Numbered from the stretch's first letter, positions 2-20,572 are shown. The stretch is DNA of 34,158 nucleotides from an uncultured Clostridia bacterium (GCA_964389965.1 CAYMGK010000001.1:2964-37121); one strand, 5' to 3'. Program-made: numbers and translations. Notes: generated by a model from the letters alone, not told the origin.

Positions 2-385
2 TTTAAAATTGTAAGAGTGAGAATAGCAAATGACGAACCTCTATTACTTGAAACAACCTATATCCCCGTCCACATATATCCTCAATTGAATCAATGGGAT
101 CTTAATAGAAAGTCCTTGTACTATATATTAAAAGTTGAAGGGGGAGTTTCCCTTGATTCCGCTATTGAAACATATGAACCCACAATTTTTGATAAAAACG
201 AGGCGGATTTATTAAAATGTAAGCATGGAACAACGGGGTTTTTCGTTGAGAGAATTGCATATACGGATATCAGGGAAGTATTTGAATATACCCAATCCAT
301 TATAAGGGGCGACAGGTGCAAGTTTAAAGTTACACTTAATAAAGATAGAGTAGGTTTTTCTAGGAGAATTCGGAATCTTGACTGA
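2..385 (+). CDS. GntR/HutC-family transcriptional regulator, C-terminal UTRA effector-binding domain (5' end outside window)
   Basis: The frame is open from base 2 (FKIVRVRIANDEPLLLETTYIP...GFFVERIAYTD...IIRGDRCKF). This resembles UTRA domains of HutC-type GntR regulators. The stop is at 383-385, immediately upstream of the kinase gene. Confidence 0.6.
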   Translation, partial: FKIVRVRIANDEPLLLETTYIPVHIYPQLNQWDLNRKSLYYILKVEGGVSLDSAIETYEPTIFDKNEADLLKCKHGTTGFFVERIAYTDIREVFEYTQSIIRGDRCKFKVTLNKDRVGFSRRIRNLD

Positions 386-418
386 CGACCTTTTGGTTTT
401 ATGCAAGGAGGCGCCTTC

Positions 419-1561
419 ATGGAAAAGGGTATACATAGATCCAATTTACTGGATACAGTGGAAAAAATGAAAGGACTAAGTCCAACTAATATTCATTCAA
501 CTATAGGATTCGATGGATTTATTGATGAAATACTCCATCTAGTTAACAAAAGGGAGAGTTTCGATAAATATTCTAGAATAAAATATATTAAAGATCTTGG
601 TGAAAGAGTGCTCAAGGCCTCTGGCCTGAGCACGAATATTGAAATGGTCCCAGTTCAAACAAAAATAGGTGGCAATGGACCAATAATGAGCAATGCATGT
701 GTTGAATTGGGATTTAAGGTTTCATGTATAGGGGCTTTTGGGTATCCCGATTTAAACCCGGTTTTCAATGATTTATCAAAAAAATGCCGTGTTTACACTA
801 TTTCCGATCCGGGGTACACAAATGCAATGGAATTCAATGATGGTAAGTTACTTCTAACTAAAAATCAGGTCTTCAATGAAATTACTTGGGAGAATTTAAA
901 GAAGAGGTTAGGAATAAAAAAACTCGCAAAGATAATTGGACAATCGGACCTTATAGGCATGGTGAACTGGACCATGATACCCCACATGACACATATTTGG
1001 GTGAAATTACAAAAACATGTTCTTCCCAAAACGGAACTTAATACGAAAAGGCCATTTGTTCTTGTAGATTTTGCCGATCCCGAAAAAAGAGAACGTAAGG
1101 ATATTCTAGAAGCTTTAGATGTTTTAAAAGGTTTTTCAGCATATTCCAAAGTTATTTTTGGCATGAATCTAAAAGAAGCCCACGAAATCATCAATGTGCT
1201 AGGATTATACAAGAATGATATACCCACGGATATAGATTTGGAAACACTGACTAGATTAATAGCAGAAAAAATGGGTATCTACTGTGTCCTTATACATCCG
1301 GTTGATCGTGCCGCTGCGGTAGTAGGCGGGAAATACTATGAAAGTCCCGGACCGTACACTCCAACTCCAATTTTGACTACTGGGGCCGGGGATAATTTTA
1401 ATGCTGGCTTTTGTCTAGGTCAAGTCCTAGGACTGACGATAAAACAGTCTTTAATAATAGGTAATGGGACTTCGGGCTTTTATGTGAGAAATGGGAGATC
1501 CCCTAATTATACGGAGTTAGTCGATTTTATAAAATATTGGTCCGAGTGTATTGACAAATAA
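419..1561 (+). CDS. PfkB/ribokinase-superfamily carbohydrate kinase
   Basis: The C-terminal motif PILTTGAGDNFNAGFCLG matches the PfkB (D)TxGAGD anion-hole signature. AAGGAGG at 405-411 lies 7 nt before ATG 419, so the ORF-track start at 401 is probably too early. Confidence 0.7.
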   Translation: MEKGIHRSNLLDTVEKMKGLSPTNIHSTIGFDGFIDEILHLVNKRESFDKYSRIKYIKDLGERVLKASGLSTNIEMVPVQTKIGGNGPIMSNACVELGFKVSCIGAFGYPDLNPVFNDLSKKCRVYTISDPGYTNAMEFNDGKLLLTKNQVFNEITWENLKKRLGIKKLAKIIGQSDLIGMVNWTMIPHMTHIWVKLQKHVLPKTELNTKRPFVLVDFADPEKRERKDILEALDVLKGFSAYSKVIFGMNLKEAHEIINVLGLYKNDIPTDIDLETLTRLIAEKMGIYCVLIHPVDRAAAVVGGKYYESPGPYTPTPILTTGAGDNFNAGFCLGQVLGLTIKQSLIIGNGTSGFYVRNGRSPNYTELVDFIKYWSECIDK

Positions 1562-1585
1562 TTTCATAAAAGGTGGATGCTTATA

Positions 1586-2647
1586 ATGAGCACAAATAGC
1601 AAAGAAATAACGGAAAATACTATTTTATGTCTTGTGTCGTTTATCGGAAATAGCTCAGGCTATAAACATATGGGTGAGTGCATGAAAGACGAGTCGATAA
1701 AACAAATCATTAGAAATACAGTGGATGAACTATGTAGTAGTGTGGAAACTGTGCGAGAACCGTGTCAGGACAATACTGATATTGCCCAATATATTGAAGA
1801 CTTAGGAAAAGGACAAAATATACAGAAAATATGCACTGAATGTTTGCACAGTCTTGGATCAAAGGGCGGTATTGTTGAAGCTACATTGAAGTATAGAAGC
1901 CAAGGGAAACTGCCCTATTATCTAGCTAAAGCCATTGCTCATGCTTTTCTGTTTCAAAATGATGAAGACGAGTTTTGTAAGGCTGTCCAGAATTATATAA
2001 AAAAATATGGCATATCGTCAGCTGTTAGAAAATATTGCAATCTTAGTAAAGAATGTGATTTGATCTACTTAATAACTCGCCACTACAATAGGTATTTGGC
2101 CGACAAAAGCATAAGTGAGGATTACCGTAAAGTTTCCATTATCAAAACCGCATATGAGGCAGGTTTTGCCGCTGAACGCAAATACCATGGATGTGCTCAA
2201 TGCACTTTATACGGCATGTATGGCATTACGGGGAAAGTAGATGAAGCTCTGTTCAGGGCCGCAAGTGGACTGTCAGGTGGTATAGCCCAATGTGGGGACG
2301 GCACATGTGGAGCCTATACTGGAGCTGCACTGTTCTTGGGAATGTTTGCGGGAAGAAGGCTAAAGTATTTTGATCATGACAAAGAAGAACAATACAGACT
2401 TGATGCTATCATTCAGAAAGTGCACGAGAGATTTATACAGACCTATGGGACAGTTATATGTAAAGAAGTACATAAAGCAATTTTTGGGCAGGCGTACGAT
2501 TTAAGGGATGATGAGGAGAAAGAGCAATTCAAAATTGCCGGTGGTCATGATGATAAATGTACTTCTGTTGTTGGGACTGCGGCAAGTTGGACCGCCGAAA
2601 TACTGCTTGAGGAAAAATTACTGGATCCTGGCGATTTTAAAATATAA
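1586..2647 (+). CDS. C_GCAxxG_C_C-family (putative redox-active) protein with an N-terminal extension of about 190 aa of unknown function
   Basis: The C-terminal half carries YHGCAQCTLYG ... GDGTCGAYTGAALFLG ... CKEV ... DKCTSVVG, typical of the C_GCAxxG_C_C family. AAGGTGG at 1570-1576 favours ATG 1586 over ATG 1577. Confidence 0.65.
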   Translation: MSTNSKEITENTILCLVSFIGNSSGYKHMGECMKDESIKQIIRNTVDELCSSVETVREPCQDNTDIAQYIEDLGKGQNIQKICTECLHSLGSKGGIVEATLKYRSQGKLPYYLAKAIAHAFLFQNDEDEFCKAVQNYIKKYGISSAVRKYCNLSKECDLIYLITRHYNRYLADKSISEDYRKVSIIKTAYEAGFAAERKYHGCAQCTLYGMYGITGKVDEALFRAASGLSGGIAQCGDGTCGAYTGAALFLGMFAGRRLKYFDHDKEEQYRLDAIIQKVHERFIQTYGTVICKEVHKAIFGQAYDLRDDEEKEQFKIAGGHDDKCTSVVGTAASWTAEILLEEKLLDPGDFKI

Positions 2648-2796: not shown

Positions 2797-2881
2797 TACT
2801 ACACTGGTGGCATATGACATTTACTGAGCTACATATGCAATGCTATCGGTGAAAAATATAATTAAGGGGGAATACAAACAA

Positions 2882-3964
2882 ATGAAAAGGCTTGTCTCGG
2901 TTTTGCTTATCACATGTTTAGCTATTACTTTACTTGTGGGCTGTGGTCAAAGTCCTACACCTTCAGATGAGGGTGAAGGCGAACCGGATGCACAGGAAGA
3001 AAAACAAATAACCATAGGGTTTTCTTTCCCAACGCTTCAGGAAGAAAGATGGCAGACTGAAAAGGACTTAGCTGAAGAGAAATCAAAAGAACTCGGTGCT
3101 AATTTCATCTATCAAGATGCAAATACCGATGCTACAACACAGAATTCTCAGATAGAAAATCTAATCACACAGGGAATCGATGTCTTAATAATAGGTGCGG
3201 CAGATACAAAAGCCGCAGCTACAGGTGTGGCGGCGGCACAAGAAGCAGGTATACCGGTAATAGCGTATTTGAGAATGGTGGATAGTGACAAACTCGATTG
3301 TTTTGTTGGATATGATTTTGTTAGAATTGGAGAAATTATGGCTGAAGCTGCTTTGGAAAGTGTGCCAAAGGGTAATTATGTTTTACTCAATGGAAGTGAG
3401 GCAGACAGTGTCGCACATCAATTAAGAGAAGGTTATCACAATATACTGGATGCAAAAGTAGATAGTGGTGACATCAATGTCATATTTGATCAATTTGTAT
3501 TAAATTGGGAACCTGCAAATGCAATGTCTGACATGGAAAACTGTCTAACTCAAAACAACAATGATGTGCAAGCTGTACTAGTAAATAATGATGGCATGGC
3601 AGGTGGTGCTATTCAGGCTCTAGGTGCACAGAATTTGATAGGAGAAGTTTTCGTTACTGGGATGGATGGTGATTTAGCCGCATGTCAAAGAATAGTAGAA
3701 GGGAAGCAGAACACAACTATAGTATTCCAGCATGACAAACTAATTGATGCTACCATGGAAGCGGCAATGGAACTAGCCCAAGGCAAACAACCGGCTGGTA
3801 TCAATGAGGAAGTTGAAAATGCCTTAACAATGGTCCCCGCTATATTGCTTGCTGCAGATTTAGTCCACAAGGATAATGTCAAAGAATTAATGATTGACAG
3901 CGGAATACACAAACTTGAAGATGTTTATAAAAATATACCTGAAGATCAATGGCCAGAAAACTAG
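2882..3964 (+). CDS. Sugar ABC transporter substrate-binding lipoprotein, XylF-like (CUT2 family)
   Basis: MKRLVSVLLITCLAITLLVGCGQ is a signal peptide with a lipobox. ITIGFSFPTLQEERWQTEKD...QNSQIENLITQGIDVLII...GIPVIAYLRMV closely parallels the E. coli D-xylose-binding protein. GGGGGA precedes ATG 2882. Confidence 0.85.
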   Translation: MKRLVSVLLITCLAITLLVGCGQSPTPSDEGEGEPDAQEEKQITIGFSFPTLQEERWQTEKDLAEEKSKELGANFIYQDANTDATTQNSQIENLITQGIDVLIIGAADTKAAATGVAAAQEAGIPVIAYLRMVDSDKLDCFVGYDFVRIGEIMAEAALESVPKGNYVLLNGSEADSVAHQLREGYHNILDAKVDSGDINVIFDQFVLNWEPANAMSDMENCLTQNNNDVQAVLVNNDGMAGGAIQALGAQNLIGEVFVTGMDGDLAACQRIVEGKQNTTIVFQHDKLIDATMEAAMELAQGKQPAGINEEVENALTMVPAILLAADLVHKDNVKELMIDSGIHKLEDVYKNIPEDQWPEN

Positions 3965-4039: not shown

Positions 4040-5560
4040 GTGAATAATGAATATATACTAAAAATGAACGGAATAATAAAAGAATTTACGGGAGTTAGAG
4101 TACTTCACAATGTAAACTTTAAAGTTAAAAAAGGCGAAATTCATGCTATAGTTGGAGAAAATGGTGCGGGAAAATCTACTTTGATGAAAATATTAAGCGG
4201 TATATATCCATATGGACAGTATGAAGGGAGTATAATTTTAGAGGAAAGTGAAGTAAGATTTAACAGTGTAAAGTCATCGGAAGAGGCTGGCATTGAAATA
4301 ATACATCAGGAACTTGAATTAGTGCCCTATATGAGCGTGGGGGAAAATATTTTTCTGGGAAATGAACCTAAAAAGGGAATATTGATTGATTATAATGCAC
4401 TTAATAAAAGGTCTTTAGAAATCTTAAAAAGAGTTAATCTTCATGTTAAGCCCAATGTAATGATTCACAGTCTCGGTGTTGGAAAAAGGCAGCTTGTGGC
4501 TATTGCAAAAGCCCTTTCAAAAGAAGTGAAAATACTTATTCTTGATGAGCCTACCTCTGCACTGACAGAAGAGGAAACGGATAATCTTTTGAATATATTA
4601 AGAGAACTCAAAAGACAGGGTGTCACATGTATATACATTTCACATAAGCTTCAAGAGGTTTTAAAAATTGCAGATACTGTGACTGTCTTACGAGATGGTA
4701 GAAGCATTATAACAGAACCCGTAAAAGACATGACTGAAGATAAGATGATAAAATACATGGTTGGTAGAGAAATCACCAACAGATTTCCCAGAGAAGCCTG
4801 TGACATAGGTGATACCGTACTAAGTGTAAAAAACTTTTCAGTAATAGATCCGGAAACAAATGAAAAGATCATTGATGATATTAGCTTTGATGTAAGGAAA
4901 GGTGAGATACTAGGTGTCTCAGGTTTGATGGGGGCCGGTAGTACAGAACTTGTAATGAGTATTTTCGGAGCGGCACCGTATGTAACAAAAGGCGATATTT
5001 ATATTAATGGAGAAAAAGTTGAAATAAATTCACCCCTTGATGCCATCAAAATGGGTATTGGCCTTGTTACGGAAGATAGAAAGGATTATGGTCTTGTTCA
5101 ATGTCTAGACATTATCAAAAACACAACATTGTCAAGTCTTGATAATATTTCATCAAAAGGTATTATAAATAAGAATATGGAGATAAAAAAAGCATGTGAT
5201 TTTGTTGAAAGTCTTTCTATAAGAGCACCAAGTCTGGAATTGGAGGCAGAAAGATTAAGTGGAGGTAATCAGCAAAAGGTTGTACTTGCAAAGACGCTTA
5301 TGACTAATCCCAGTATACTTATCATGGATGAACCCACAAGAGGCATTGATGTAGGTGCAAAATATGAGATTTACATGATAATGAACAGGCTAATTCAAAA
5401 AGGTGTTGCAATAATCATGATTTCATCTGAATTACCCGAAATACTAGGTATGTCCGATAGGGTTATGGTAATAAATTGTGGTAAAAAAGCCGGTGAGCTT
5501 GACCGCGAAAATGCAGATCAGGAAACAATAATGACTTATGCTACATCGGAGGTTGTTTAA
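4040..5560 (+). CDS. Sugar ABC transporter ATP-binding protein with duplicated ATPase domains, XylG-like
   Basis: Walker A GENGAGKST, LSGGNQQK signature, ILILDEPT/LIMDEPT Walker B. The N-terminus ...GIYPYGQYEGSIILE...IIHQELELV...ENIFLGNE parallels XylG. GTG start with GGGGG upstream. Confidence 0.9.
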   Translation: MNNEYILKMNGIIKEFTGVRVLHNVNFKVKKGEIHAIVGENGAGKSTLMKILSGIYPYGQYEGSIILEESEVRFNSVKSSEEAGIEIIHQELELVPYMSVGENIFLGNEPKKGILIDYNALNKRSLEILKRVNLHVKPNVMIHSLGVGKRQLVAIAKALSKEVKILILDEPTSALTEEETDNLLNILRELKRQGVTCIYISHKLQEVLKIADTVTVLRDGRSIITEPVKDMTEDKMIKYMVGREITNRFPREACDIGDTVLSVKNFSVIDPETNEKIIDDISFDVRKGEILGVSGLMGAGSTELVMSIFGAAPYVTKGDIYINGEKVEINSPLDAIKMGIGLVTEDRKDYGLVQCLDIIKNTTLSSLDNISSKGIINKNMEIKKACDFVESLSIRAPSLELEAERLSGGNQQKVVLAKTLMTNPSILIMDEPTRGIDVGAKYEIYMIMNRLIQKGVAIIMISSELPEILGMSDRVMVINCGKKAGELDRENADQETIMTYATSEVV

Positions 5561-6730
5561 ATGGGATTACAAGAAAGTAAAATTGCTACAGAAAAAAAGG
5601 AAGGTTCCACGAATTTTAGATTTAATATTACTGCATATGCAATGGTTATAGCCTTAGCTGTGATTTGGATCATGTTTCAATTTTTGACAAAAGGGACGTT
5701 CTTATCAGTTAGAAACCTTTCAAATTTATTTAGACAGATGTCCATAACCGGTATCTTGGCAATAGGCATGGTTATGTGTATCATATCGGGTAATTTTGAC
5801 TTATCCGTGGGGTCTGTAGTCGGAATTACAGGTGCTTTGGCGGCTGTGGCTCAAACCCATTGGGACCTTGCCCCGTATTTATCAGTGCTAATTGTAATTT
5901 TAGTTGGAGTTGTTATTGGATTATGGCAGGGTTTTTGGATAGCATACAGAAATGTTCCGGCATTCATAGTGACACTTGGTGGTATGATGATATTTAGGGG
6001 GATGACTTTATGGGTAACAAAGGGCAACGCAATACCTATTTCCAATGAGGGTTTTATCTTTATAGGTCAACATTATCTACCGAAACTCTTAGGTTACCTT
6101 TTAGCAGTTGTCAGCATCGTTGCATACTTATATCTAGATATTAGAAATAAAAAAACGAGGATCAGTTATGGTTTTGATGTTCCCAGTGCCATCAGGTCTT
6201 TGCTAAATTACGCCATTGCAACTGTTTTGATAGGTGTATTTATTGTCATAATGAACCTATACCAAGGTGTTCCGATAACTGTGATAATACTTCTTTCCTT
6301 GTTTATGTTGTTTTCATTTATTTTAAGCAATACACAGTTTGGTCGTTATATATATGCTATTGGGGGCAATATCAATGCTGCAAAGATTTCTGGTATAAAT
6401 ACAAAAAGAATAACCTTATTAGTTTTCACATTGATGTCTGTATTAGCCTCTATATCAGGTTTAATACTTGCTGCTAGGCTTGCGGCGGCTACCCCCACAG
6501 CCGGTAATATGTATGAAATGGATGCAATTGCTTCATGTGTTATAGGCGGAGTGAGCCTAAAAGGTGGAAGAGGCACGGTTTTTGGGGCAATTGTCGGTGC
6601 ACTGGTAATGGCAAGTTTGAACAATGGCATGAGTCTTATGAATATAGCCTCATCAATACAGTATATGGTAAATGGCTTAGTACTCTTGATGGCAGTATGG
6701 TTTGATATATCAACTAATGTAGGAGAGTAA
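5561..6730 (+). CDS. Sugar ABC transporter permease, XylH-like
   Basis: Polytopic membrane protein with CUT2 permease motifs (FDLSVGS, IYAIGGN..AA..SGI, GGVSLKGGRGTV). The ATG directly abuts the ATPase stop codon (TAAATG). Confidence 0.85.
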   Translation: MGLQESKIATEKKEGSTNFRFNITAYAMVIALAVIWIMFQFLTKGTFLSVRNLSNLFRQMSITGILAIGMVMCIISGNFDLSVGSVVGITGALAAVAQTHWDLAPYLSVLIVILVGVVIGLWQGFWIAYRNVPAFIVTLGGMMIFRGMTLWVTKGNAIPISNEGFIFIGQHYLPKLLGYLLAVVSIVAYLYLDIRNKKTRISYGFDVPSAIRSLLNYAIATVLIGVFIVIMNLYQGVPITVIILLSLFMLFSFILSNTQFGRYIYAIGGNINAAKISGINTKRITLLVFTLMSVLASISGLILAARLAAATPTAGNMYEMDAIASCVIGGVSLKGGRGTVFGAIVGALVMASLNNGMSLMNIASSIQYMVNGLVLLMAVWFDISTNVGE

Positions 6731-6797
6731 AAGAATTATTTATATACAAAAGACCGGTAGATGGTTTTAAATATAGCATGTGAGGTGCAATGAACAT

Positions 6798-7556
6798 ATG
6801 AAAACCACGGATCCTAAAAAACGGGCCTTATTGGAAAGTTTTAAAAATGGCCTTATTGTTTCTTGTCAGGTACAAAAAGATGACCCGATTTATACAGAGG
6901 ATATTGTAGTTAAAATGGCTCAAGCTGCACAATGGGCTGGTGCAGTTGGAATCAGAGCCAATTCCCCGGAACAGATTAGCGCTATAAAAGCAGAAGTGGA
7001 TTTGCCTGTTATTGGGCTTTATAAAATATGGCATGAAGGCACTGATGTGTTTATAACCCCTACATTGGAAGCGGCAAAAGAAGTGTGGAAAGCGGGAGCG
7101 GAGGTAATAGCACTTGATTGCACTGAGCAAGTCACACACATGGGTACTAGGGCTTATGAATTACTGCCAATTGTGAAGGCAGAGATTCCAGAAGCAATTG
7201 TTTTCGCCGATGTTTCAAATTACGATGAGGGCAAAAGAGCTATTGACTTAGGTGCAGATATTGTTGCACCTACACTTTATGGATATACAAAAGAAACTGC
7301 ACATATTGAAAATCCCGATTTTAGGGAGTTTGCAAGAATGTGTAGGGATTTTAAAGAGCATGTGTATGTGATGATGGAGGGACATATTTACACCCCGGAA
7401 GATGCCATGAAATGCCTTTACTTAGGGGCTCATGCTGTAGTAGTAGGAAGTGCAATCACAAGGCCTCATTTAACTGCAAAGCGCTTTGTTGATTTGTTAA
7501 GTGGCTATCAGGAAAACTGGAGAGAAGCGGAAAGGAAAAGGCATATAAATGAGTAA
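6798..7556 (+). CDS. nanE: NanE-family (N-acylmannosamine-6-phosphate 2-epimerase-like) enzyme
   Basis: GLIVSCQVQKDDPIY...MAQAAQWAGAVGIRANSPEQISAIKAEVDLPVIGLYK...DVFITPT...GAEVIALDCT follows the NanE core. GAGGTG at 6782-6787 precedes ATG 6798. The 3' end overlaps the GRE start by 8 nt. Confidence 0.8.
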   Translation: MKTTDPKKRALLESFKNGLIVSCQVQKDDPIYTEDIVVKMAQAAQWAGAVGIRANSPEQISAIKAEVDLPVIGLYKIWHEGTDVFITPTLEAAKEVWKAGAEVIALDCTEQVTHMGTRAYELLPIVKAEIPEAIVFADVSNYDEGKRAIDLGADIVAPTLYGYTKETAHIENPDFREFARMCRDFKEHVYVMMEGHIYTPEDAMKCLYLGAHAVVVGSAITRPHLTAKRFVDLLSGYQENWREAERKRHINE

Positions 7557-9828
7557 GTTTAATGTGGAAGTCTCACAAAATGTAGAGGTCAGTGCTAAGA
7601 TACCCAGTGAGAAAACTCCTTCACAGCAGCTCGAAATAATGAAAGACTATACCAGGGTACACAAAGATACTAAAGACTTACCAAAGGCAAAACGGGAAAT
7701 CGAGTGCCTAAAAGTACTTTACCCCACACTATTTAGGCAAATTCAAAATGATGATAAAATCGCCGGAAGATTAGATTTTTTGCCTATTGGTTTTGGATGT
7801 GTCACTTCTGTTGGAGGTGTAGGTCATTACTGTGTTTTTAGTAAACTTAAAGCACTTGAAAATCAACTGGGGACTGCAGAAGAAAAACAAGATTTGAAAG
7901 AACTCTACAATTATTGGTTAAAACACGATCTAAAGACATTGTATTGTAATGAAATAATTACGGATGGTACTATTGGGCCTTTCATTGACTGCGAATATCC
8001 TTTAATAGCAACAGCTCGGCTCAGTGGTATGATGCTCAACTACCATAAACTCATGGAACTGGGGATAAAAGGTTTGCGTGAGGAAATCTCGACAAAGCTC
8101 AAGGAAAAACCAAATAACAACTTTTTAGAGGCTTGCCTTGAGGCTTTGGATTTATTTGTAATTTGTGCTCGGCATTTGCAAAACATGGTGGAGAATCAAA
8201 GACTTACAGCAAGTCACAAGAGAAAGGCTGAATTAGATATTATCTGGAATAGCCTTGAACATATAAAGCATGAAAAACCTACAACCTTCCACCAAGCGTT
8301 ACAACTCTTCTGGTTATTTGCATTGCTAGCCGGTGTTATTAATTATGGAAGAATGGACGATGTCCTAGGGCCTTTTCTTAAACACGATTTAGAAAATAAG
8401 ATAATAACGGAACATGAGGCATTTGGTTATCTTAAAAGCCTATGGACATTAATAGAGAACCGGCGCACAACGGTTAATGGCCGGATTATTGTCGGGGGTA
8501 AAGGGCGAAGACATCCAGAAGCCGCCGATGTGTTTCTAAAACTTGCCATGAAAGTAACCCAAGAATGTCGATATGTGGAGCCCCAATTCACATTGCGTGT
8601 AAGTGATGAGACATCTGAGGAGATTTTTGATATAGCATTAGAGCTCTTGGGCCAAGGTGTTACATATCCTACATTATATAATGATGAAGTAAATATTCCT
8701 GCAGTCATGCATGCCATGAGAGTTGATGAGCAAACCGCCCAACAGTATGTGCCTTTTGGTTGTGGAGAATTTGTAATTCAGGGTCAAAGTACTGGGACTC
8801 CAAATACCTGTATAAATCTCCTGAAACTTCTTACAATCACCCTTAATCAAGGGGTGGATCCGGTGGACAATTTGAAAAAGTGTGGCCCTATAAGAATTAA
8901 ACCACTGACAGAATATAGAACCTTCCAAGAACTCTACGATAAATATAAAGAACTCCTAAATTACTATTTCGATCTGTCTGTAAAGGCACAATACCATTCT
9001 TATAAAGTTATGAATAGTGAAGTGTCCTTTTTATTTACCAGTATTTTAATGGATGATTGTATAGAACGGGGTAGGGCAGTTTTAGATGGGGGTATCCGCT
9101 ATCTTGGCGGGACTAACGAGACTTATGGTAATATCAACACATCTGATGCACTTTACGCCATTAAAAAACTGGTTTTTGATACTGGAAAATATTCCTTAGC
9201 TCAATTGCATAAGGCGGCCTTGGCTAATTTTGAAGGGTATGAGAGGATTCGCAAGGATTTGCTTGAATGCGCCAAATACGGAAACGATATTGATGAAGTT
9301 GATGAATTAGCCGATGATCTCTTCCGCTTTGTAGCAAATGGCATCAGGGATCGGGGTATAAAAATAGGTATGGATTACTATTTGATTGTCATAAGCAATA
9401 ACCAACTCAATACAGAATGGGGTAGGCGCACAGGTGCATCTTTAGATGGTAGGCCTTTCGGTTTTTATATGAATCCTGCAAATAATCCCCAAGGAGGAGC
9501 CGACAAATCAGGCCCCACAGCCATGCTAAATTCAATTTCAAAATTTGAGGCCAAATATCATGGAGGTTCTGTTCAAAATATAAAATTTTCTCCAAAACTC
9601 TTTAATGAACAGCGGGAAAAAATAAAAGCCATGATAAAGGGGTATTTCAAAAGAGGTGGCTGCCAACTAATGGTTACTGTAGTAGATAGGGGAGTTTTGG
9701 AAGATGCAGTAAAGCACCCGGAACTCTATCCAAACCTACTCGTAAGGGTCAGTGGGTTCAGTGCAGTGTTCGTAAATCTAGAGCCTGATGTACAAAAGGA
9801 GATTATGAGTAGGGTTTTATATGAGTGA
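7549..9828 (+). CDS. Glycyl radical enzyme (PFL2/dehydratase-like clade), substrate unknown
   Basis: C-terminal glycyl radical motif LLVRVSGFSAVF (Gly736, codon 9754-9756). Thiyl loop PFGCGEF (Cys405 at 8761-8763, Glu407). Other GRE blocks are present: TFHQALQLFW, NYGRMDD, IIVGGKG, PQFTLRV, TYPTLYNDE, GASLDGRP, GADKSGPTAMLNS. Confidence 0.9.
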   Translation: MSKFNVEVSQNVEVSAKIPSEKTPSQQLEIMKDYTRVHKDTKDLPKAKREIECLKVLYPTLFRQIQNDDKIAGRLDFLPIGFGCVTSVGGVGHYCVFSKLKALENQLGTAEEKQDLKELYNYWLKHDLKTLYCNEIITDGTIGPFIDCEYPLIATARLSGMMLNYHKLMELGIKGLREEISTKLKEKPNNNFLEACLEALDLFVICARHLQNMVENQRLTASHKRKAELDIIWNSLEHIKHEKPTTFHQALQLFWLFALLAGVINYGRMDDVLGPFLKHDLENKIITEHEAFGYLKSLWTLIENRRTTVNGRIIVGGKGRRHPEAADVFLKLAMKVTQECRYVEPQFTLRVSDETSEEIFDIALELLGQGVTYPTLYNDEVNIPAVMHAMRVDEQTAQQYVPFGCGEFVIQGQSTGTPNTCINLLKLLTITLNQGVDPVDNLKKCGPIRIKPLTEYRTFQELYDKYKELLNYYFDLSVKAQYHSYKVMNSEVSFLFTSILMDDCIERGRAVLDGGIRYLGGTNETYGNINTSDALYAIKKLVFDTGKYSLAQLHKAALANFEGYERIRKDLLECAKYGNDIDEVDELADDLFRFVANGIRDRGIKIGMDYYLIVISNNQLNTEWGRRTGASLDGRPFGFYMNPANNPQGGADKSGPTAMLNSISKFEAKYHGGSVQNIKFSPKLFNEQREKIKAMIKGYFKRGGCQLMVTVVDRGVLEDAVKHPELYPNLLVRVSGFSAVFVNLEPDVQKEIMSRVLYE

Positions 9829-9857
9829 GACATGTATTCGAGAAGGAGAGCAAACCT

Positions 9858-10751
9858 GTGACCCAATTAAATATTTTTGATATTCAACGATGCTGTTTTC
9901 ATGATGGTCCCGGAATACGCACAGTGGTGTTTTTTCAGGGATGTCCCCTACACTGTCCTTGGTGTGCTAATCCTGAATCACAAAAGACAAAAAAGCATCT
10001 TCTACATTTTAAGAGCAAATGCACTTTATGTGGAGAATGTATCAAAGCCTGTCCTGAAAATATAATTGTGGTTAAACACGGCAAATGGCAGGTTGACAGG
10101 AAGAAATGCACTGGATGTGAACAATGTGCAAAAGTCTGTCTACAAAGTGCAGTAAAATTTTCAGGAGAAAAAAGAACCGTCGGGGAAATACTTGAAGTGG
10201 TGGAAAGAGATTGGGACTATTATGAAACCTCCCAAGGTGGGTTGACGATTTCAGGGGGAGAGCCTTTTGCCCAACCGGAAGGATTGGTTGAATTACTTAG
10301 AGCAGCAAAAGAGCAGGGTCTACACACCGCTGTGGAAACCTGTGGCCACACTTCCACTAAAAATATTTTGACTGCAGAGCCCCATATAGATTTATTTTTA
10401 TATGATATAAAACATCATGATATTGGGACTTTTCGTAGAATAACCGGTGGAGATTTGCCCTTGATCTTAGGTAATTTGGATCTTTTAGCTCAGAAATCAC
10501 CGGAGAAAGTGGTACTTAGAGTGCCGGTTATTCCCGGTTTCAATAATGACATAAAAACCCTTGAGGGTATTTTTACATTAGCCAAAGGGAAAAACCTCAA
10601 AAAAATAGAACTTTTGCCCTACCACACTTTAGGTAAAAGTAAGTACATACAAATGGGTTTAAAATATCAGATGGGAGAAGTATCGGATCTCACTTCCCAA
10701 GACTTGGAGCCTTATAGACAGCTCGGCATGAAAATGGGCTTAAACACTTAA
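9858..10751 (+). CDS. Glycyl-radical-enzyme activating enzyme (radical SAM, with two auxiliary ferredoxin-type clusters)
   Basis: IFDIQRCCFHDGPGIRTVVFFQGCPLHCPWCANPE gives the CX3CX2C radical-SAM motif. CTLCGECIKACP and CTGCEQCAKVCL are two CX2CX2CX3C motifs. GAAGGAGAG at 9842-9850 favours GTG 9858. GTG 9825, overlapping the GRE stop, is the alternative. Confidence 0.9.
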   Translation: MTQLNIFDIQRCCFHDGPGIRTVVFFQGCPLHCPWCANPESQKTKKHLLHFKSKCTLCGECIKACPENIIVVKHGKWQVDRKKCTGCEQCAKVCLQSAVKFSGEKRTVGEILEVVERDWDYYETSQGGLTISGGEPFAQPEGLVELLRAAKEQGLHTAVETCGHTSTKNILTAEPHIDLFLYDIKHHDIGTFRRITGGDLPLILGNLDLLAQKSPEKVVLRVPVIPGFNNDIKTLEGIFTLAKGKNLKKIELLPYHTLGKSKYIQMGLKYQMGEVSDLTSQDLEPYRQLGMKMGLNT

Positions 10752-10783
10752 ATATATTTTTGCTATTTGTTACAGAACAGGGC

Positions 10784-10816
10784 ATCGGACATCCGGCGAA
10801 TCGCCGAATGTCCGAT
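10784..10816. terminator. GC-rich nested hairpin at the convergent junction of the GRE operon and the TRAP operon
   Basis: atcggacat-c-cggcg-aat-cgccg-a-atgtccgat forms 9 + 5 bp. There is no clear U-tract on either strand, so terminator function is only inferred from its position. Confidence 0.4.
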
Positions 10817-10850
10817 ATCCCACGAAGCGTAGGGCAAAAACTACACTAGT

Positions 10851-11834
10851 TTACAAGACCCCGACTTCTTCATAATACTTTTTAGCACCATCATGTAATG
10901 GCAATCCCGCTAAATTTTTCACAGCATTTTCGATAGACATTTCCTTTAAAGCATTATGGGTATTCCTTAATGAATCTATGTTTTCCCACAACACCTTTGT
11001 CATTTCATAAACAGTATCTTCAGGTACACTTTCATCCACCATCAATGTGATTACAATACTTGTTGTTACAACATCTTCATCTTGACCATCATAAGTCCCC
11101 GCCGGAATAATCGCCCTGTTATACCAGGGATATTGTTCAACTAGTTTTTCAATTACATCTTCATCAAAGGAAATCAATTTACCATTAGCAGTTGCACACA
11201 TTTCCGACACTGCCGCTGTAGGAAGTCCTGCCTGTATCCATGCACCTTCAAGTTGTTTGTTGCGCATTAAATCAACTGCTTCAGTAAAGCCCACAAATTG
11301 AGCCTTGATATCATCAGGATAATTCATGCCTGCAATTTCAAAATAAATACCTGTTTCTACCTCAGGAGTACTGCCCGATGCACCAGGAGCAAAGCGTTTG
11401 CCTTTAAAGTCCTGCATGGAATTAACACCGGAATCTCTTGTGGAAACAACTTGGTTGTAGTTTGAATATAAAGCAGACAAAATCCTAACCCCATCATATG
11501 ACCTACCTTCAAACTTACCTATACCCTGCTTTTGTTCAGTGATAATGCTAGTAACAGCGACTGATACCTGAGCATCACCGGTGGACATCAACCCGAGATT
11601 TTGCACACCCCCATTTGATGCTTCGGCAGAAACTTCCACGCCATCAATGTTTTTATTCCACAATTCCGCAATAGCCGCCCCAATTGGATAAATAGCACCA
11701 GAAGTGGTAGCCGTTGGGAACTGTAAGTACATAGGCTTTCCTACCTGTTCATCACTTGTTTTGCCGGAAGAGCAACCGGCAAGTGTACATATAACTAAAA
11801 CTGCACACATAGCAAAAACCAACCACTTTTTCAT
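10851..11834 (-). CDS. TRAP transporter solute-binding lipoprotein, TAXI family
   Basis: MKKWLVFAMCAVLVICTLAGCSS is a lipobox signal peptide. FPTATTSGAIYPIGAAIAELWNK...VSAEASNGGVQNLGLMSTGDAQV is typical of TAXI receptors. Confidence 0.85.
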   Translation of the reverse strand: MKKWLVFAMCAVLVICTLAGCSSGKTSDEQVGKPMYLQFPTATTSGAIYPIGAAIAELWNKNIDGVEVSAEASNGGVQNLGLMSTGDAQVSVAVTSIITEQKQGIGKFEGRSYDGVRILSALYSNYNQVVSTRDSGVNSMQDFKGKRFAPGASGSTPEVETGIYFEIAGMNYPDDIKAQFVGFTEAVDLMRNKQLEGAWIQAGLPTAAVSEMCATANGKLISFDEDVIEKLVEQYPWYNRAIIPAGTYDGQDEDVVTTSIVITLMVDESVPEDTVYEMTKVLWENIDSLRNTHNALKEMSIENAVKNLAGLPLHDGAKKYYEEVGVL

Positions 11835-11891
11835 AATTTCTTTCCCCTTTCCCTTTTTATGATACTAATGTGGGTCTACAGTGATATACAC

Positions 11892-13931
11892 TTAACCTAC
11901 TACAATTTGCTTTTTTTCCCGTTGGTTTATAATATACTGGTAACCTACTAAAACCATAGCCATAACAGCACCGATTATGTCAGTAAAAGCTCGTGGATCT
12001 ATACTTAAAAACGCAATTGCCAAACATACCCCCCTTTCGATGATACTACATCTTCTTATCAACCAACCCTGAGTGAAAACTGCAAGAAAGTATATACCAA
12101 TTAACGCACCTATGGCAGTTCTAATTATTGTCAGTGCACTTGTGCCAACAGGTGCACACCCAAGTAGTAAAACAGGGTTGAGTAGAAAGAAAAACGGCAA
12201 TATAAAACCCGATAATCCAACTTTTACAGCTTGTAAACCACTTTTAGTAAAATTGGATTTTGCGATTCCGGCTGCAACATACACAGACATTGCAACAGGT
12301 GGTGTGATATTGGATAGTGATGCATAAATCAAACAAAACATATGTGCCGGGATAGGGGCAGAACCTACTTGTATCATGACTGGAATTGCTACAGCAGTTA
12401 TTATTACATATGCGGCGATACCGGGTACTCCCATGCCCAAAATCGAACTCATGAGTGCAACCATTATACCGGCTTTAAGCAGTTGACCCGGTCCCACAAA
12501 CCTCAACATTATATAGCCAAACTTTAAGCCAAGGCCTGTCAAGGAAACTGTTCCTACAATTATGCCGATAACAACACAGCACACTCCAACACTCACTGCA
12601 CCTCTTGCTCCTTCATCACAGGCAGTTACAATCTTTTTAAACCCCATTCGGGTTTCAGGCCTTATCCAAGATGTTATAACCGTTACAATAATAGAGGCAA
12701 CACATGCAAATAAGGGTGTATAACCCATAGCCATGATTGCAAGTAACGAAACAAGTGGTGCCAACATATGCCCTTCCTTTTTTAATACTTCTACGACATT
12801 TGGGATATGTTCTTTAGATAATCCTTTTAAACCCAGTTGTCTTGCTTCTAAATGTACTGCAAACAGTAAACCCATGTAATACAAAAATGCAGGAATGATT
12901 GCCGCTAACAACACTACAGAGTAAGAAACACCAAGGAATTCCGCCATTAGAAATGCTACTGCACCCATTATGGGAGGACAGAACTGTCCACCAGTGGCCG
13001 CTGCTGCCACTACCCCGGCGGAAAAATCTGAGTCATACCCGCTTTTTTTCATCATGGGAAGGGTGATGGATCCGGTTGTTGCTACATTGGCAATTGCAGA
13101 GCCGTTTATCATGCCCATCAGGCCACTTGCAACTACTCCCACTTTTGCAGGACCGCCGGGACTTTTTCCCACAAGTGTAAGAGATATATTGTTGATAAAG
13201 CTACTAAAACCACTGTGGTTTAAAAATGAACCAAAAAGTACAAATACAAATATATATGTTGCCGAAACCCCAATCCCTGCCCCGAAAATCCCTTGGCTAC
13301 TCCAAAACATATGTCCAATTAACCTAGAAACCGTAAAACCGCCATGACTGAGGGTACCTGGAATCCAGTGACCTGCAAAATTATACATAAGGAAGATTGC
13401 TGCAAGCCACACTAAGCCCCCTGCAGCTCTTTTTGCCGCAAAAAATACTAGAATAATCGCTATAACTCCTAAAAAATCCTCAAAAGGTGTGACAAAGCCA
13501 CCTGTAAGGGCAATTCTGGAATAATTCATAACAAAATAACTAAATACATATAATGTCGTGGCGATCAGTATTGCATCGAAGATAGTTGGCATTTTCCTTT
13601 TTCTGTTTTCTTTGTTGTGACCTGGATAAAGCATGAAACAAAATACCAATAAAAAGGTTGCATGTAATGCGCGCAATGTTATAGCTTCCATGGTCCCGAT
13701 AGTTGTATAATATAGTTGAAATATGACCCATACTATAGAAAATCCCAGCAAAACTTTTTTCCATAGACCTATATAAGTCCTCGTCTTACTTTCAGTGTCT
13801 ACTTTTTCTAAAATTTCTTGGGTTTGTCGTTCCATATCCTCAAGATCTTCTTTGGATATATCGCTTGCCGCTCTAATACGTTCTTTACTAGTATTGGTTT
13901 CCCCTGATTTTATTTGTTTCCTTTTGGTCAT
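11892..13931 (-). CDS. TRAP transporter fused permease (TAXI-associated, DctQ/DctM-like fusion)
   Basis: A 679-aa polytopic membrane protein lying directly upstream of the TAXI receptor gene on the same strand. GAAAGGGG precedes the ATG. Confidence 0.85.
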   Translation of the reverse strand: MTKRKQIKSGETNTSKERIRAASDISKEDLEDMERQTQEILEKVDTESKTRTYIGLWKKVLLGFSIVWVIFQLYYTTIGTMEAITLRALHATFLLVFCFMLYPGHNKENRKRKMPTIFDAILIATTLYVFSYFVMNYSRIALTGGFVTPFEDFLGVIAIILVFFAAKRAAGGLVWLAAIFLMYNFAGHWIPGTLSHGGFTVSRLIGHMFWSSQGIFGAGIGVSATYIFVFVLFGSFLNHSGFSSFINNISLTLVGKSPGGPAKVGVVASGLMGMINGSAIANVATTGSITLPMMKKSGYDSDFSAGVVAAAATGGQFCPPIMGAVAFLMAEFLGVSYSVVLLAAIIPAFLYYMGLLFAVHLEARQLGLKGLSKEHIPNVVEVLKKEGHMLAPLVSLLAIMAMGYTPLFACVASIIVTVITSWIRPETRMGFKKIVTACDEGARGAVSVGVCCVVIGIIVGTVSLTGLGLKFGYIMLRFVGPGQLLKAGIMVALMSSILGMGVPGIAAYVIITAVAIPVMIQVGSAPIPAHMFCLIYASLSNITPPVAMSVYVAAGIAKSNFTKSGLQAVKVGLSGFILPFFFLLNPVLLLGCAPVGTSALTIIRTAIGALIGIYFLAVFTQGWLIRRCSIIERGVCLAIAFLSIDPRAFTDIIGAVMAMVLVGYQYIINQREKKQIVVG

Positions 13932-14036: not shown

Positions 14037-14873
14037 TCAGTCTATGGGGTAAGAACCTAGAAACTTATAAAAACTTGCCACAGATTTAAGTTCCCTCAAC
14101 GTGTTATCTATAGCTTTAGTACCTTTAGTGCCTTCAAATTCAATAAAAAAAATATATTCACCTAACATCCTTTTTGAGGGTCTAGACTCGATTTTTGTGA
14201 GATTTATTCCCCGGTTTGCAAATAGTTTTAGACTATTTGCAAGACTTCCCGGTTTATTTTCCATAGAAAAAGCCAATGTTGTCTTACCATCTGCAGAAGT
14301 AGGTAAATCTTCTGCAGAGATTACGTAAAATCGAGTCTTATTATTTTTTGTTCCCTGAATATTTTTTGCTAAAAGCTGTAGCCCGAAGTTCTTACCTAAT
14401 CTAATACTGCCGATGGCGGCAGTGTTTCCACCTCTCTCAGAAACAAGCCTCGCTGCCCCGGCAGTTGAAGATGTTTCTAAAAACTTAACCTTAGGTAGCT
14501 TTTTCTTCAAATAATCCCTACATTGAAAGATAGCCTGTGGATGAGAATAAATCACCTCAATATCTTTTAGAGAAACATTTTTACAAGCAAAAAGGTTTTG
14601 TTTAATGGGTAAAATCACTTCACCTATTATATTTGCTTTAATTTCATGAATGAGGAGGTCTATAGTAATGTTAACAGAGCCTTCCAAAGAATTTTCCGCT
14701 GGCACAACTGCAACATCAGTATCTTTTCCTATGGCATACATCAACTCAGAAATCGAAGGAAAAGCCTCCTTTTCCCAGTTATCCAAATTTAGATTTTGCC
14801 TGTTAAGCCATTTTTCCAAAGCTTCTTCGGTAAATGTACCCTTGGGTCCTAAAAAACCTATTCTTTTCAACAT
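14037..14873 (-). CDS. pheA: Prephenate dehydratase
   Basis: IGFLGPKGTFTEEA at the N-terminus. The catalytic domain is followed by an ACT domain (TLAFSMENKPGSLANSLKLFANRGINLTKIESRPSK...YIFFIEFEG). Confidence 0.9.
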   Translation of the reverse strand: MLKRIGFLGPKGTFTEEALEKWLNRQNLNLDNWEKEAFPSISELMYAIGKDTDVAVVPAENSLEGSVNITIDLLIHEIKANIIGEVILPIKQNLFACKNVSLKDIEVIYSHPQAIFQCRDYLKKKLPKVKFLETSSTAGAARLVSERGGNTAAIGSIRLGKNFGLQLLAKNIQGTKNNKTRFYVISAEDLPTSADGKTTLAFSMENKPGSLANSLKLFANRGINLTKIESRPSKRMLGEYIFFIEFEGTKGTKAIDNTLRELKSVASFYKFLGSYPID

Positions 14874-15291: not shown

Positions 15292-15458
15292 ACAACAATT
15301 TTATTCGGGCAATTGTGGAAACTCATTGGGATTTAAAAAAAAGAGGAAAAATTGATGTTCTTATAGAATATACTAGTAGCAAGGTTCGATTTTCAAAGTT
15401 TTAAGGTGGTAGGGAACCTATTTAAAATAGGCCCTTGCCGATAATTGGGGGGATAAAA

Positions 15459-16850
15459 ATGCAGATGAATTTTAGTCTGACATTATCACAAACCCAAAAA
15501 CTTGTCATGACTCCTGAGCTCAGGCAAGCTATAACTATCTTACAACTTTCCGCACTTGAATTGGATCAGTATATAGAGAACCAGCTTTTGGAAAACCCAT
15601 TACTTGATGTAACTGATGAAGATATAAAGGAAGATGAGCCTATAGAAAAAGTCGAAGAAAAAGAATCCGACAGTATTGATTGGGAAGAGTATTTTCAAGA
15701 TAGGGCAAGTTCCGGTCCAATAAGGGGACAGTCGGAACAAAAAGAAGAAAGGGCGGGGTATGAAAATTTTGTGTCATCAACACCGTCACTACAGGAACAC
15801 CTGATGATGCAATTGCATTTTTTATCAATACCTAAGACAGCCCTAAAAATTGGAGAGTTTCTAATAGGCAATCTCGATAAAAACGGGTACCTCACTATAA
15901 CGACAAAAGAGGCCTCAAGGCTTCTCAAAGTATCGGAGGAAGATGTGGAAGCCTGTTTAAAAACTATCCAAACCTTCGATCCCTCGGGAGTTGGAGCCAG
16001 AAGTCTAACTGAATGTCTTCTAATACAAATAGAGCAAAAAGGTATTGATGAGCCAAAAATACGGGATTTAGTTAAAAATCATCTATCTGATTTAGGAGAA
16101 GCGCGGTTTTCTAAAATAGCCGAAGCCTTAAATATTGGCCTTGCAGAAGTTCAGAATTTAAAAGATATTTTAGTCACCCTTGATCCGAAACCTGGGCGAA
16201 ATTTTTCTTCCATCAACGATGTTCATTATATAACTCCAGATGCTACCATAGAAAAAGTGGGCAGTGAATATGTGATTATTATGAATGACACCATGTCTCC
16301 GCGACTGTCAATAAATCCTTATTACAGGTCTTTATTACGTTCAGAAGATAAGGAATCAAATATTTCCAAGTTTTTATCCTGTAGATTGGATTCGGCCCTT
16401 TGGCTCATAAAGAGTATTGAACAAAGGCGTATTACCCTTAATAAAGTTATCCAATCCATAGCAGAGGTACAGAGGGACTTTTTAGACAATGGCCTTATTC
16501 ATCTTAAACCTCTTACAATGAAGCATATTGCGGATAAAGTCGGAGTCCACGAATCCACTGTCTCCAGAGCCATCAGCGGTAAATATGTTCAGACTCCTAG
16601 GGGAGTATTTGAGCTAAAATTCTTCTTCCAAAGCGGTTTGAATAATGTTAATGGCACCTCTACTTCTTCAGAAAGTATTAAAAAAATGATAAGACAGATG
16701 ATAGATGAAGAAAACCCACATAAGCCATTAAGTGATAAGAGAATCGCAGATATGTTAAAAATAAAGGGTATATCCATTTCTCGAAGGACTATTGCAAAAT
16801 ATCGGGATGAAATTGGCATATTACCATCTACTAAAAGAAAAAGATATTAA
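15459..16850 (+). CDS. rpoN: RNA polymerase sigma-54 factor
   Basis: N-terminal region I MQMNFSLTLSQTQKLVMTPELRQAITILQLS. C-terminal HTH and RpoN box (GISISRRTIAKYRDEIGI). GGGGGGA precedes ATG 15459. The ORF-track TTG at 15435 is unlikely to be the start. Confidence 0.9.
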   Translation: MQMNFSLTLSQTQKLVMTPELRQAITILQLSALELDQYIENQLLENPLLDVTDEDIKEDEPIEKVEEKESDSIDWEEYFQDRASSGPIRGQSEQKEERAGYENFVSSTPSLQEHLMMQLHFLSIPKTALKIGEFLIGNLDKNGYLTITTKEASRLLKVSEEDVEACLKTIQTFDPSGVGARSLTECLLIQIEQKGIDEPKIRDLVKNHLSDLGEARFSKIAEALNIGLAEVQNLKDILVTLDPKPGRNFSSINDVHYITPDATIEKVGSEYVIIMNDTMSPRLSINPYYRSLLRSEDKESNISKFLSCRLDSALWLIKSIEQRRITLNKVIQSIAEVQRDFLDNGLIHLKPLTMKHIADKVGVHESTVSRAISGKYVQTPRGVFELKFFFQSGLNNVNGTSTSSESIKKMIRQMIDEENPHKPLSDKRIADMLKIKGISISRRTIAKYRDEIGILPSTKRKRY

Positions 16851-16870
16851 TTCTGTTTTTTTAAAAATCA

Positions 16871-16906
16871 TGGGACAATTTCAGACTACAAGGGACGTTA
16901 AATGGC
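16871..16906 (+). promoter_or_regulatory. Putative CggR operator (tandem direct repeat)
   Basis: tGGGAC-N6-aGaC-N4-aGGGAC-N6-TGgC has exactly the spacing of the B. subtilis CggR operator CGGGAC-N6-TGTC-N4-CGGGAC-N6-TGTC. It lies 126 nt upstream of gap. Confidence 0.65.
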
Positions 16907-17007
16907 CCTATGTAGGAAACTGAATAAAACCAGAGCCATTAAGTAAATTCTAAGTATAAAGAAGTGAAGTATCCCAGAGTACTAAAATGACTTTTAAAGT
17001 CAATTAA

Positions 17008-18045
<1,038 letters not shown>

Positions 18046-18061
18046 TAAGGGCAATGAGAGC

Positions 18062-18106
18062 GGCTGAAGAGCCCTTGTTTTATGAGGGCTTTTCAGCCAT
18101 TTGTTT
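18062..18106 (+). terminator. Hairpin between gap and cggR (partial terminator or RNA-stability element)
   Basis: ggctgaagagccc (18062-18074) pairs with gggcttttcagcc (18086-18098) over 13 bp, including one G-U. An interrupted T-rich tract (atttgtttcattt) follows. Confidence 0.45.
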
Positions 18107-20566: not shown

Positions 20567-20572
20567 GTTATT

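Follow-up and report, generated by a model that had tools for sequence, protein, structure and literature searches.

The NanE-like/GRE/activase locus

The DNA analysed was a stretch of 34,158 nt from an uncultured Clostridia bacterium (GCA_964389965.1 CAYMGK010000001.1:2964-37121), referred to below, at its full length, as the window. It encodes a glycyl radical enzyme (GRE) placed on the same strand between a NanE-like sugar-6-phosphate 2-epimerase and a radical S-adenosylmethionine (SAM) activase: both junctions are overlaps, of 8 nt between the NanE-like stop and the GRE start and of 4 nt between the GRE stop and the activase start. The order NanE-like, GRE, activase is a tightly conserved and translationally coupled cassette with the GRE in the middle, and it forms the distal part of a sugar-uptake operon (a GntR-type regulator, a ketohexokinase (Khk)-like kinase, an MtlD_C/GCAxxG protein and a CUT2 ATP-binding cassette (ABC) importer). 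This widespread and uncharacterised cassette is the main finding, and its most informative feature, the NanE-like partner, had been missed by the first-pass annotation, which dealt with the GRE. The features of the cassette are the following.

6780..7556, + strand: NanE-like sugar-6-phosphate 2-epimerase of a GRE-linked subfamily (Pfam NanE 168 bits; NF002231 244 bits against a cutoff of 189)
7503-7556, + strand: C-terminal extension of the NanE-like protein, residues 242-258, conserved among the GRE-linked NanE-like proteins
7549..9828, + strand: GRE catalytic subunit, 759 aa (ATG start; uninterrupted reading frame)
8011..8028, + strand: T155-A-R157-L-S-G160, with Gly160 where glycerol dehydratase (GD), YbiW and PflD have the general-acid His (MAFFT, phmmer, invariant columns)
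8761..8769, + strand: Cys405-Gly406-Glu407, predicted thiyl-radical Cys and general-base Glu (alignment to characterised GREs)
9754..9756, + strand: Gly736, predicted radical-bearing glycine in RVSGFS (motif; Gly_radical domain)
9825..10751, + strand: GRE-activating radical SAM enzyme (TIGR02494 334 bits against a cutoff of 174; Pfam Radical_SAM and Fer4)

The GTG at 6780, with which the NanE-like open reading frame (ORF) begins, is probably too far upstream; since the homologues all start with MKT, the ATG at 6798 (MKTTDP) is the more likely start. The activase carries its motif CPLHCPWC (CX3CX2C) at nt 9942-9965 and a ferredoxin-like insert for two clusters.

The product of the ORF at 7549-9828 is a complete Cys-x-Glu GRE, expected to be sensitive to oxygen. 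Its start codon is backed by homologues opening with MAKFNVE or MSKFNVE, M1 being invariant, and the first-pass annotation was right in calling the enzyme intact: all the motifs it had quoted are in place, namely PFGCGEF at residues 402-408 (with Cys405, Gly406 and Glu407 at nt 8761-8769), GASLDGRP at 629-636, GADKSGPTA at 650-658 and RVSGFS at 733-738 (with Gly736 at nt 9754-9756). Pfam recognised a PFL-like domain (414 bits) and a Gly_radical domain (93 bits, residues 643-742) in the 759-aa protein, and the AlphaFold2 model built on an alignment of 134 sequences had the ten-stranded barrel fold of the GREs, with a predicted local distance difference test score (pLDDT) of 94.6 and a predicted template modelling (TM) score of 0.93. 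An earlier model from 24 close homologues (pLDDT 65.6, below 50 in the active-site core) was discarded. Against all solved GREs the model gave TM scores of 0.83-0.87, yet at only 20-25% identity, and the closest entry in the PDB by phmmer and fold comparison was only 25% identical.

The catalytic Cys loop had also been assigned correctly: phmmer against the PDB paired Cys405/Glu407 with Cys433/Glu435 of GD (1r8w) and placed the loop opposite GCVE in HypD and GCIE in YbiW, and MAFFT with YbiW (AIGCIET) and PflD (VVGCVEL) of E. coli K-12 returned the same register. The C-x-E of the eliminase and isomerase classes is thus present and not the C-C of pyruvate formate-lyase (PFL). Glu407 is invariant across both the orthologous family and the wider clade, and this Glu has a common role in all C-x-E GREs (PMC13450708). 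The homologues go under 'pyruvate formate lyase family protein' in public records, a label with which the PFL-like domain recognised by Pfam agrees, but we see practically no chance that the enzyme is a PFL: its G-C-G-E loop is without the Cys-Cys pair, it reached 88 bits on TIGR01255 (PFL; cutoff 994) and only with the C-terminal part, and PFL structures match only residues 574-756.

A clade of short GREs with the C-G-E loop

An exhaustive HMMER search through 1.84 billion representatives at 50% identity returned 5,428 relatives of the GRE. The loop was covered in 141 of the best 150 of these 50%-identity representatives and read x-C-G-E in 110 of the 141 (GCGE in 95, DCGE in 7, NCGE in 6, ACGE and SCGE in 1 each), with GCVE, GCSQ, GCIE and other variants confined to more distant matches. 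The G-C-G-E loop, described at first pass as unusual, is therefore common in its own lineage, and the alignments mark it as the signature of a clade and not as an anomaly. In the characterised enzymes that could be aligned, the middle residue was Val (GD, HypD, PflD) or Ile (YbiW) and in none of them Gly; the first-pass annotation had considered that the motif might turn out to be common in a characterised subfamily, and common it is, but the subfamily is an uncharacterised one.

Conservation of the loop among orthologues, to which the same annotation had referred the matter, held for the Glu, which was invariant, and not for the middle residue, which was Gly or Thr instead of a fixed Gly. Orthologues (62-79% identity) had YVPFGCGEFV in 25 and YVPFGCTEFV in 95 of the 120 nearest clusters drawn at 90% identity, and in 58 species-level loci the catalytic Cys was followed by Gly in 26 and by Thr in 30. 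Position 406 thus tolerates either residue, a small side chain being the apparent constraint, and a specific role for Gly406 looks unlikely, because Gly and Thr interchange among orthologues. The Gly after the catalytic Cys matters less than the rest of the locus and is useful as a clade marker.

The small size remarked on at first pass is real: proteins of the C-G-E clade have about 740-780 aa, owing to loop deletions which are common to the whole clade and include the loop bearing the general-acid His of GD. A few members of the clade (P0208, P0215 and P0219) have lost the catalytic Cys, with the loops GDGE, GNGG and GGGE, which could reflect either inactive paralogues or errors of sequencing.

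Profile scoring, also proposed at first pass, confirmed the GRE domains (PFL-like and Gly_radical) but gave no subfamily, since the protein stayed below every NCBIfam cutoff: 316 against 678 bits on TIGR01774 (PFL2/glycerol dehydratase subfamily) and, among the equivalogs, 265 against 1100 for HypD, 239 against 1050 for CutC, 226 against 1109 for the PflD-type NF007437 and 220-223 against 1000 for HpfG/HpsG. None of 48 representatives of the C-G-E clade scored better than E 3e-106 on any NCBIfam model, and the 2026 review of GREs (PMC13450708) lists no enzyme of the C-G-E type. The short C-G-E GREs form a large clade without a solved or characterised member.

The differences from known GREs are concentrated around the leaving group. 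In GD, His164 is the acid that protonates the leaving hydroxyl (PMC13450708). This residue lies in an insertion which phmmer found to be absent from the query, and the corresponding His of YbiW (TSGDAH) and PflD (DKGQGH) aligned by MAFFT with Gly160. At this place the clade carries [Y/A]-R-[L/M]-S-G, with both Arg157 and Gly160 invariant. In phmmer and MAFFT alignments the clade was also without the six-residue ESNGHS loop preceding the NYGR motif and without 14-17 residues ahead of the IIVGG strand, and Asp447 of GD paired with Asn419 of the query. With the His, the ESNGHS loop and the residues before IIVGG gone, and with Asn419 in place of Asp447, the clade keeps the Cys/Glu pair, and the leaving-group side of its pocket is predicted to be built differently.

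The best sequence and fold matches were the B12-independent GD of C. butyricum (1r8w; E 1.8e-67, Foldseek E 1e-43) and 1,2-propanediol dehydratase (5i2a/5i2g), which share the C-x-E motif with the query, so that a small-polyol dehydratase of one of these two types had to be weighed. It is very unlikely: at 24-25% identity to these dehydratases, the query matches them no better than it does CutC, HypD and YbiW (20-25% identity, TM 0.83-0.87), and it lacks three of their loops, namely the insertion with GD His164 and two further GD loops. The genomic context is unrelated as well, being free of microcompartment, aldehyde dehydrogenase and 1,3-propanediol dehydrogenase genes, and the partners are sugar kinases, a phosphotransferase system (PTS) and an epimerase. 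The C-x-E eliminases CutC (choline trimethylamine-lyase) and HypD (hydroxyproline dehydratase) have the same fold (TM 0.83-0.87), but only 23-25% identity, and neither microcompartment nor proline-pathway genes neighbour the query. CutC demonstrates that C-N bond cleavage, with no oxygen as leaving group, is within reach of the GRE scaffold.

Distribution and gene content of the cassette

Relatives of the GRE were found in 374 of the 185,579 species genomes scanned. The hosts include Christensenella, Parabacteroides, Alistipes, Dysgonomonas, Tannerella, Anaerostipes and Anaerotruncus, and further Enterococcus, Listeria immobilis, Lacticaseibacillus, Treponema, Spirochaetaceae and Actinomycetota. 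Clustering of the ORFs of 84 loci into protein families gave the following occurrence (number of loci).

Core families: GRE 78, activase 74, NanE-like 65
Kinase and oxidoreductase families: ROK kinase 37, GFO/IDH/MocA oxidoreductase 33
Regulators and transport: AraC 30, DeoR 30, ABC ATPase 21
Minor families: AP_endonuc_2 13, DeoC 10, GH94-like 9, mannose-type PTS components 6-8

The activase was present in 74 of the 78 related loci. Among the 58 species loci in which 3 kb or more flanked the GRE on each side, the NanE-like gene was located within 6 kb of it in 48, mostly immediately upstream. The association was equally strong in the reverse direction: among 80 metagenome loci retrieved with the NanE-like protein alone, the GRE was present in all 67 that had at least 1.5 kb downstream. 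A GRE match was found in 74 loci in total, directly adjacent and on the same strand in 63 of them, and the six loci without a match were truncated contigs. A phosphorylating partner was recognised as a ROK kinase in 26 and as a mannose-type PTS in 8 of the 58 loci, and minimal operons added only a regulator and a mannose-type PTS to the NanE-like, GRE and activase genes. DeoC, ManA, NagB-like and GH94-like genes recurred in minorities of loci only. In the literature nothing relevant was found that links NanE, mannosamine or an epimerase, or Parabacteroides, to glycyl radical enzymes.

In a sister GRE family (54-55% identity; L086, L094 and L095), a GntR/UTRA regulator and a 639-aa fructose-type PTS EIIABC were both invariably present, along with an activase and without an epimerase, a layout like that of E. 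coli mngR-mngA with the hydrolase swapped for a GRE. More distant C-G-E members sat among glycoside hydrolases (GH106, GH10, GH130, GH2) together with AP_endonuc_2, alcohol dehydrogenase (ADH) or PhyH proteins. On account of the PTS of the sister family and the glycoside hydrolases around the distant members, the C-G-E clade looks carbohydrate-directed as a whole.

Some loci carried additional genes. A protein of about 740 aa with a weak GH94-superfamily domain was encoded in the same operons (L059, 7026-9260; L092, 4146-6368; seven other loci); it had no NCBIfam match and almost no similarity to PDB entries, and may be a glycoside phosphorylase or hydrolase releasing the sugar of the pathway. 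Comparison of this protein, the GFO oxidoreductase and the AP_endonuc_2 protein with the PDB produced no specific assignment. The cassettes of Bacteroidota (P. distasonis L001/L002, 13929-20266; L008, L016, L021, L035, L037, L039) adjoin an AraC regulator and an operon that encodes a DUF1080 protein (3-keto-disaccharide hydrolase), a xylose-isomerase-like TIM barrel and a pair of GFO/IDH/MocA oxidoreductases. The arrangement resembles systems for oxidative cleavage of 3-keto-glycosides, and it may have a functional link to the GRE.

The NanE-like partner

The NanE-like protein shares with canonical NanE (PDB 1yxy, 6vva, 4utt, 5zkn) the family threshold and the catalytic and binding residues: those common to the solved NanEs are kept (Q11, R40, K63, D124, E180 and R208 in S. 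aureus numbering), and 53 columns are identical across three solved NanEs and the GRE-linked group. In its neighbourhood it differs from canonical NanE, adjoining a GRE and never nanA in the loci examined. It also differs in sequence. The identity to solved NanEs is 39-42%, the latter being 48-54% identical among themselves, and the GRE-linked proteins have a median identity of 74.6% across phyla, seven fixed substitutions (L13Q, D46Q, I61L, M122F, T144P, A179M and G204S, S. aureus numbering) and a conserved C-terminal extension, GYQxNWRxAExxKH, absent from solved NanEs. Because of this high mutual identity, the seven fixed substitutions and the extension of their own, the GRE-linked NanE-like proteins are classed here as a distinct, dedicated subfamily. 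The extension might touch the GRE or the substrate, and the substitutions together with the extension would leave the substrate choice open beyond N-acetylmannosamine 6-phosphate (ManNAc-6-P) and N-acetylglucosamine 6-phosphate (GlcNAc-6-P). A role of the locus in defence was also considered and dropped, neither the GRE nor the NanE-like protein matching a defence system in PADLOC.

NanE chemistry consists of deprotonation and reprotonation beside an aldehyde and hence needs an aldose-6-phosphate; a clean epimerisation of the NanE type requires a C2 without hydroxyl. This bears directly on the possibility that the GRE has the function of E. coli YbiW and PflD (PDB 8id7, 8id0, 8yjo). The latter are C-O lyases ('GRE isomerases') that convert 1,5-anhydroglucitol-6-phosphate or 1,5-anhydromannitol-6-phosphate to 1-deoxyfructose-6-phosphate, and the same reaction would here be performed by another GRE clade. 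Shared features are the GRE fold (TM 0.83-0.85), the C-x-E loop, the glycine loop with RVxG, a neighbouring activase gene whose product has a ferredoxin insert, and an operon for sugar-phosphate catabolism that a PTS or kinase supplies, as with pflD/frw. Moreover, the sister family is tied to a fructose-type PTS, and GFO/IDH/MocA oxidoreductases recur nearby, with 1,5-anhydrofructose reductase among their better PDB matches. We nevertheless consider this function unlikely. The identity is only 23-24%, NF007437 gave 226 bits against 1109, the middle residue of the loop is Ile or Val in YbiW/PflD and Gly or Thr here, and YbiW/PflD keep two longer loops and a His in the beta1 loop which the C-G-E clade does not have, this His being Gly in the query. 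An acid/base epimerase of the NanE type would have no role on carbonyl-free anhydrohexitols. The partner of YbiW/PflD is an Fsa aldolase and that of the cassette GRE a NanE-like epimerase; an Fsa-type aldolase was found in 1 of about 170 loci (L054) and belonged there to a separate PflD-like operon.

This locus, from a member of Erysipelotrichales, carries both systems 5 kb apart (9250-13157 and 15366-20766): the NanE-like/GRE/activase cassette and an operon for a PflD-like GRE with 57% identity to E. coli PflD, a GCVE loop, its own activase and the Fsa aldolase. That one genome keeps both argues for non-redundant functions. The second operon is flanked by a DeoR regulator and a canonical-type NanE. 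The latter was examined as a link between NanE and anhydrohexitols and rejected, being 53% identical to S. aureus NanE and 39% to the GRE-linked proteins.

Proposed pathway

Taken together, it is rather probable, with doubt remaining, that the GRE of the cassette is a radical lyase of the Cys-x-Glu type whose substrate is a 2-epimerisable hexose-6-phosphate, with the NanE-like enzyme as its feeder epimerase. The gene context linked to NanE supports this reading by the two-way coupling, the gene overlaps and the association with a kinase or PTS. Further support comes from the intact GRE with its activase, fold and C-x-E motif, from the strongly conserved NanE-like subfamily, from the carbohydrate loci of the wider clade, and from the missing His together with the conserved Arg157. 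A hexosamine-type (2-N-substituted) hexose-6-phosphate is favoured as the substrate; this class is held loosely, because the kinase and the binding proteins resemble neutral-sugar types. The sequence of steps, the phosphorylated state of the substrate and the kind of bond broken are all inferred.

According to this scheme, a monosaccharide would be imported and phosphorylated, here by the ABC transporter and the kinase and elsewhere by a ROK kinase or a mannose-type PTS. The NanE-like enzyme would then invert C2 of the resulting aldose-6-phosphate, whose C2 substituent would not be a hydroxyl, and supply the epimer that the GRE accepts. The activase would set the radical on Gly736, from which it would be relayed to Cys405, and the Cys405 thiyl radical would take a hydrogen from one of the carbinol carbons in the sugar phosphate, with Glu407 deprotonating the hydroxyl of the same carbon. 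Cleavage of a C-N or C-O bond in the ketyl radical so formed would then release the substituent of the adjacent carbon. For this departure no His general acid would be available, Gly160 standing in its place, and Arg157 would be positioned to hold an anionic group. Finally, the product radical would regain a hydrogen from Cys405.

The opposite order of the two enzymes was also weighed: the GRE would make a ManNAc-6-P-like 2-substituted aldose-6-phosphate, and the NanE-like enzyme would convert it to the gluco epimer for housekeeping enzymes of the NagA/NagB type. The minimal operons without a downstream enzyme suit this order, as the end product would be a common metabolite; the NanE-like protein is a full member of the NanE family, and ManA and NagB-like genes are present in a few loci. 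It is nonetheless improbable, if a shade less so than a YbiW/PflD-like function. Judging from the mechanisms in PMC13450708, C-x-E chemistry would leave a CH2 or CH3 by the new carbonyl and no substituted stereocentre at C2, and the NanE-like gene is missing from 10 of the 58 loci and from the sister family, which fits a feeder better than an obligatory last step. The placement of the NanE-like enzyme ahead of the GRE is favoured for the same two reasons: the unsubstituted carbon that C-x-E chemistry leaves beside the new carbonyl, and the loci and the sister family that do without an epimerase.

Several observations weigh against the pathway in which the NanE-like enzyme feeds the GRE. The absence of a nearby NanE-like gene from 10 of the 58 complete loci (about 17%) means that the epimerase is not strictly required in cis, and the sister family works with a fructose-type PTS and no epimerase. 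The kinase is ketohexokinase-like, the binding protein xylose/glucose-like and the ROK partners closer to glucokinases than to ManNAc kinases (233 against 124 bits), so that a neutral sugar fits better than a hexosamine. Arg157 is conserved also in clade members from kinase-free loci and, therefore, need not be a phosphate ligand. Beyond transporters and AP_endonuc_2, no consistent recurrent downstream enzyme was found by Pfam among 100 ungrouped operon mates.

The broader proposition is evenly balanced in our judgement: that the cassette is an unrecognised radical route for 2-substituted or 2-epimerisable hexose-6-phosphates, spread horizontally in gut and sediment anaerobes such as Parabacteroides distasonis, Enterococcus, Listeria and Anaerostipes, and that its GRE catalyses an elimination without a His acid which is new to the superfamily. 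If true, the GRE would perform a radical beta-elimination that breaks a C-N or C-O bond in an aldopyranose phosphate and has no known precedent among GREs, and the C-G-E clade, which comprises no fewer than 110 clusters at 50% identity, would be a carbohydrate-active GRE class without a characterised member.

GREs open to anaerobes substrates that are beyond ordinary acid/base chemistry, and the newly assigned ones (CutC, HypD, IslA, YbiW/PflD) each revealed a pathway relevant to the gut. Here, the linked NanE-type epimerase narrows the GRE substrate to 2-epimerisable sugar-6-phosphates, and the three-gene cassette is small enough for direct expression and present in culturable gut species. 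Discovery of its substrate would add a GRE reaction and a new sugar-utilisation trait of common commensals.

The operon and the rest of the window

The remaining features of the window are the following.

17..385, + strand: GntR/HutC-type regulator, C-terminal UTRA part, clipped by the window edge (Pfam UTRA 76 bits)
401..1561, + strand: sugar kinase of the prokaryotic ketohexokinase (Khk, PfkB-related) family (PF25270 204 bits, PfkB 29 bits)
1577..2647, + strand: fusion of a mannitol-1-phosphate dehydrogenase C-terminal domain and a C_GCAxxG_C_C putative redox domain (Pfam, NCBIfam)
2840..3964, + strand: monosaccharide binding protein (XylF/ChvE-like) of a CUT2 ABC importer (Peripla_BP_4 191 bits; xylF 291 bits, below the cutoff of 390)
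4040..5560, + strand: sugar ABC ATPase with two ABC domains (ABC_tran 180 bits; NF010069 (xylose) 697.9 bits against a cutoff of 699)
5561..6730, + strand: sugar ABC permease, GguB/AraH-like (BPD_transp_2 135 bits; GguB 399 bits)
10784..10816, no strand assigned: GC-rich hairpin, 16-nt arms, 94% complementary, between the convergent activase and TAXI-TRAP genes
10851-13931 (- strand), 14037-14873 (- strand) and 15435-33598 (+ strand): housekeeping genes

The GntR/HutC-type protein, encoded on the same strand 15 nt upstream of the kinase gene, likely regulates the operon, and the hairpin at 10784-10816 is its probable end mark. The Khk-like kinase at 401-1561, which had no NCBIfam match, fills the slot held by a ROK kinase or a mannose-type PTS in most related loci. 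The MtlD_C/GCAxxG fusion at 1577-2647 has no NAD-binding Rossmann domain and was found in none of the other loci examined. The presence of AddAB and CggR points to a host in the Bacillota, and no protein of the window had a relative with at least 90% identity in the public collection. A recent transfer of the cassette was considered and rejected: neither GC nor GC3 showed an anomaly across the cassette and operon, the composition being uniform, and the window as a whole has 38.8% GC. The housekeeping genes in the rest of the window include a TAXI-TRAP transporter pair, prephenate dehydratase, sigma-54, addB/addA, an H+-pyrophosphatase, an amino-acid binding protein and a glycolytic cluster, gap-cggR-pgk-tpi-gpmI-eno, in which the regulator sits after gap.

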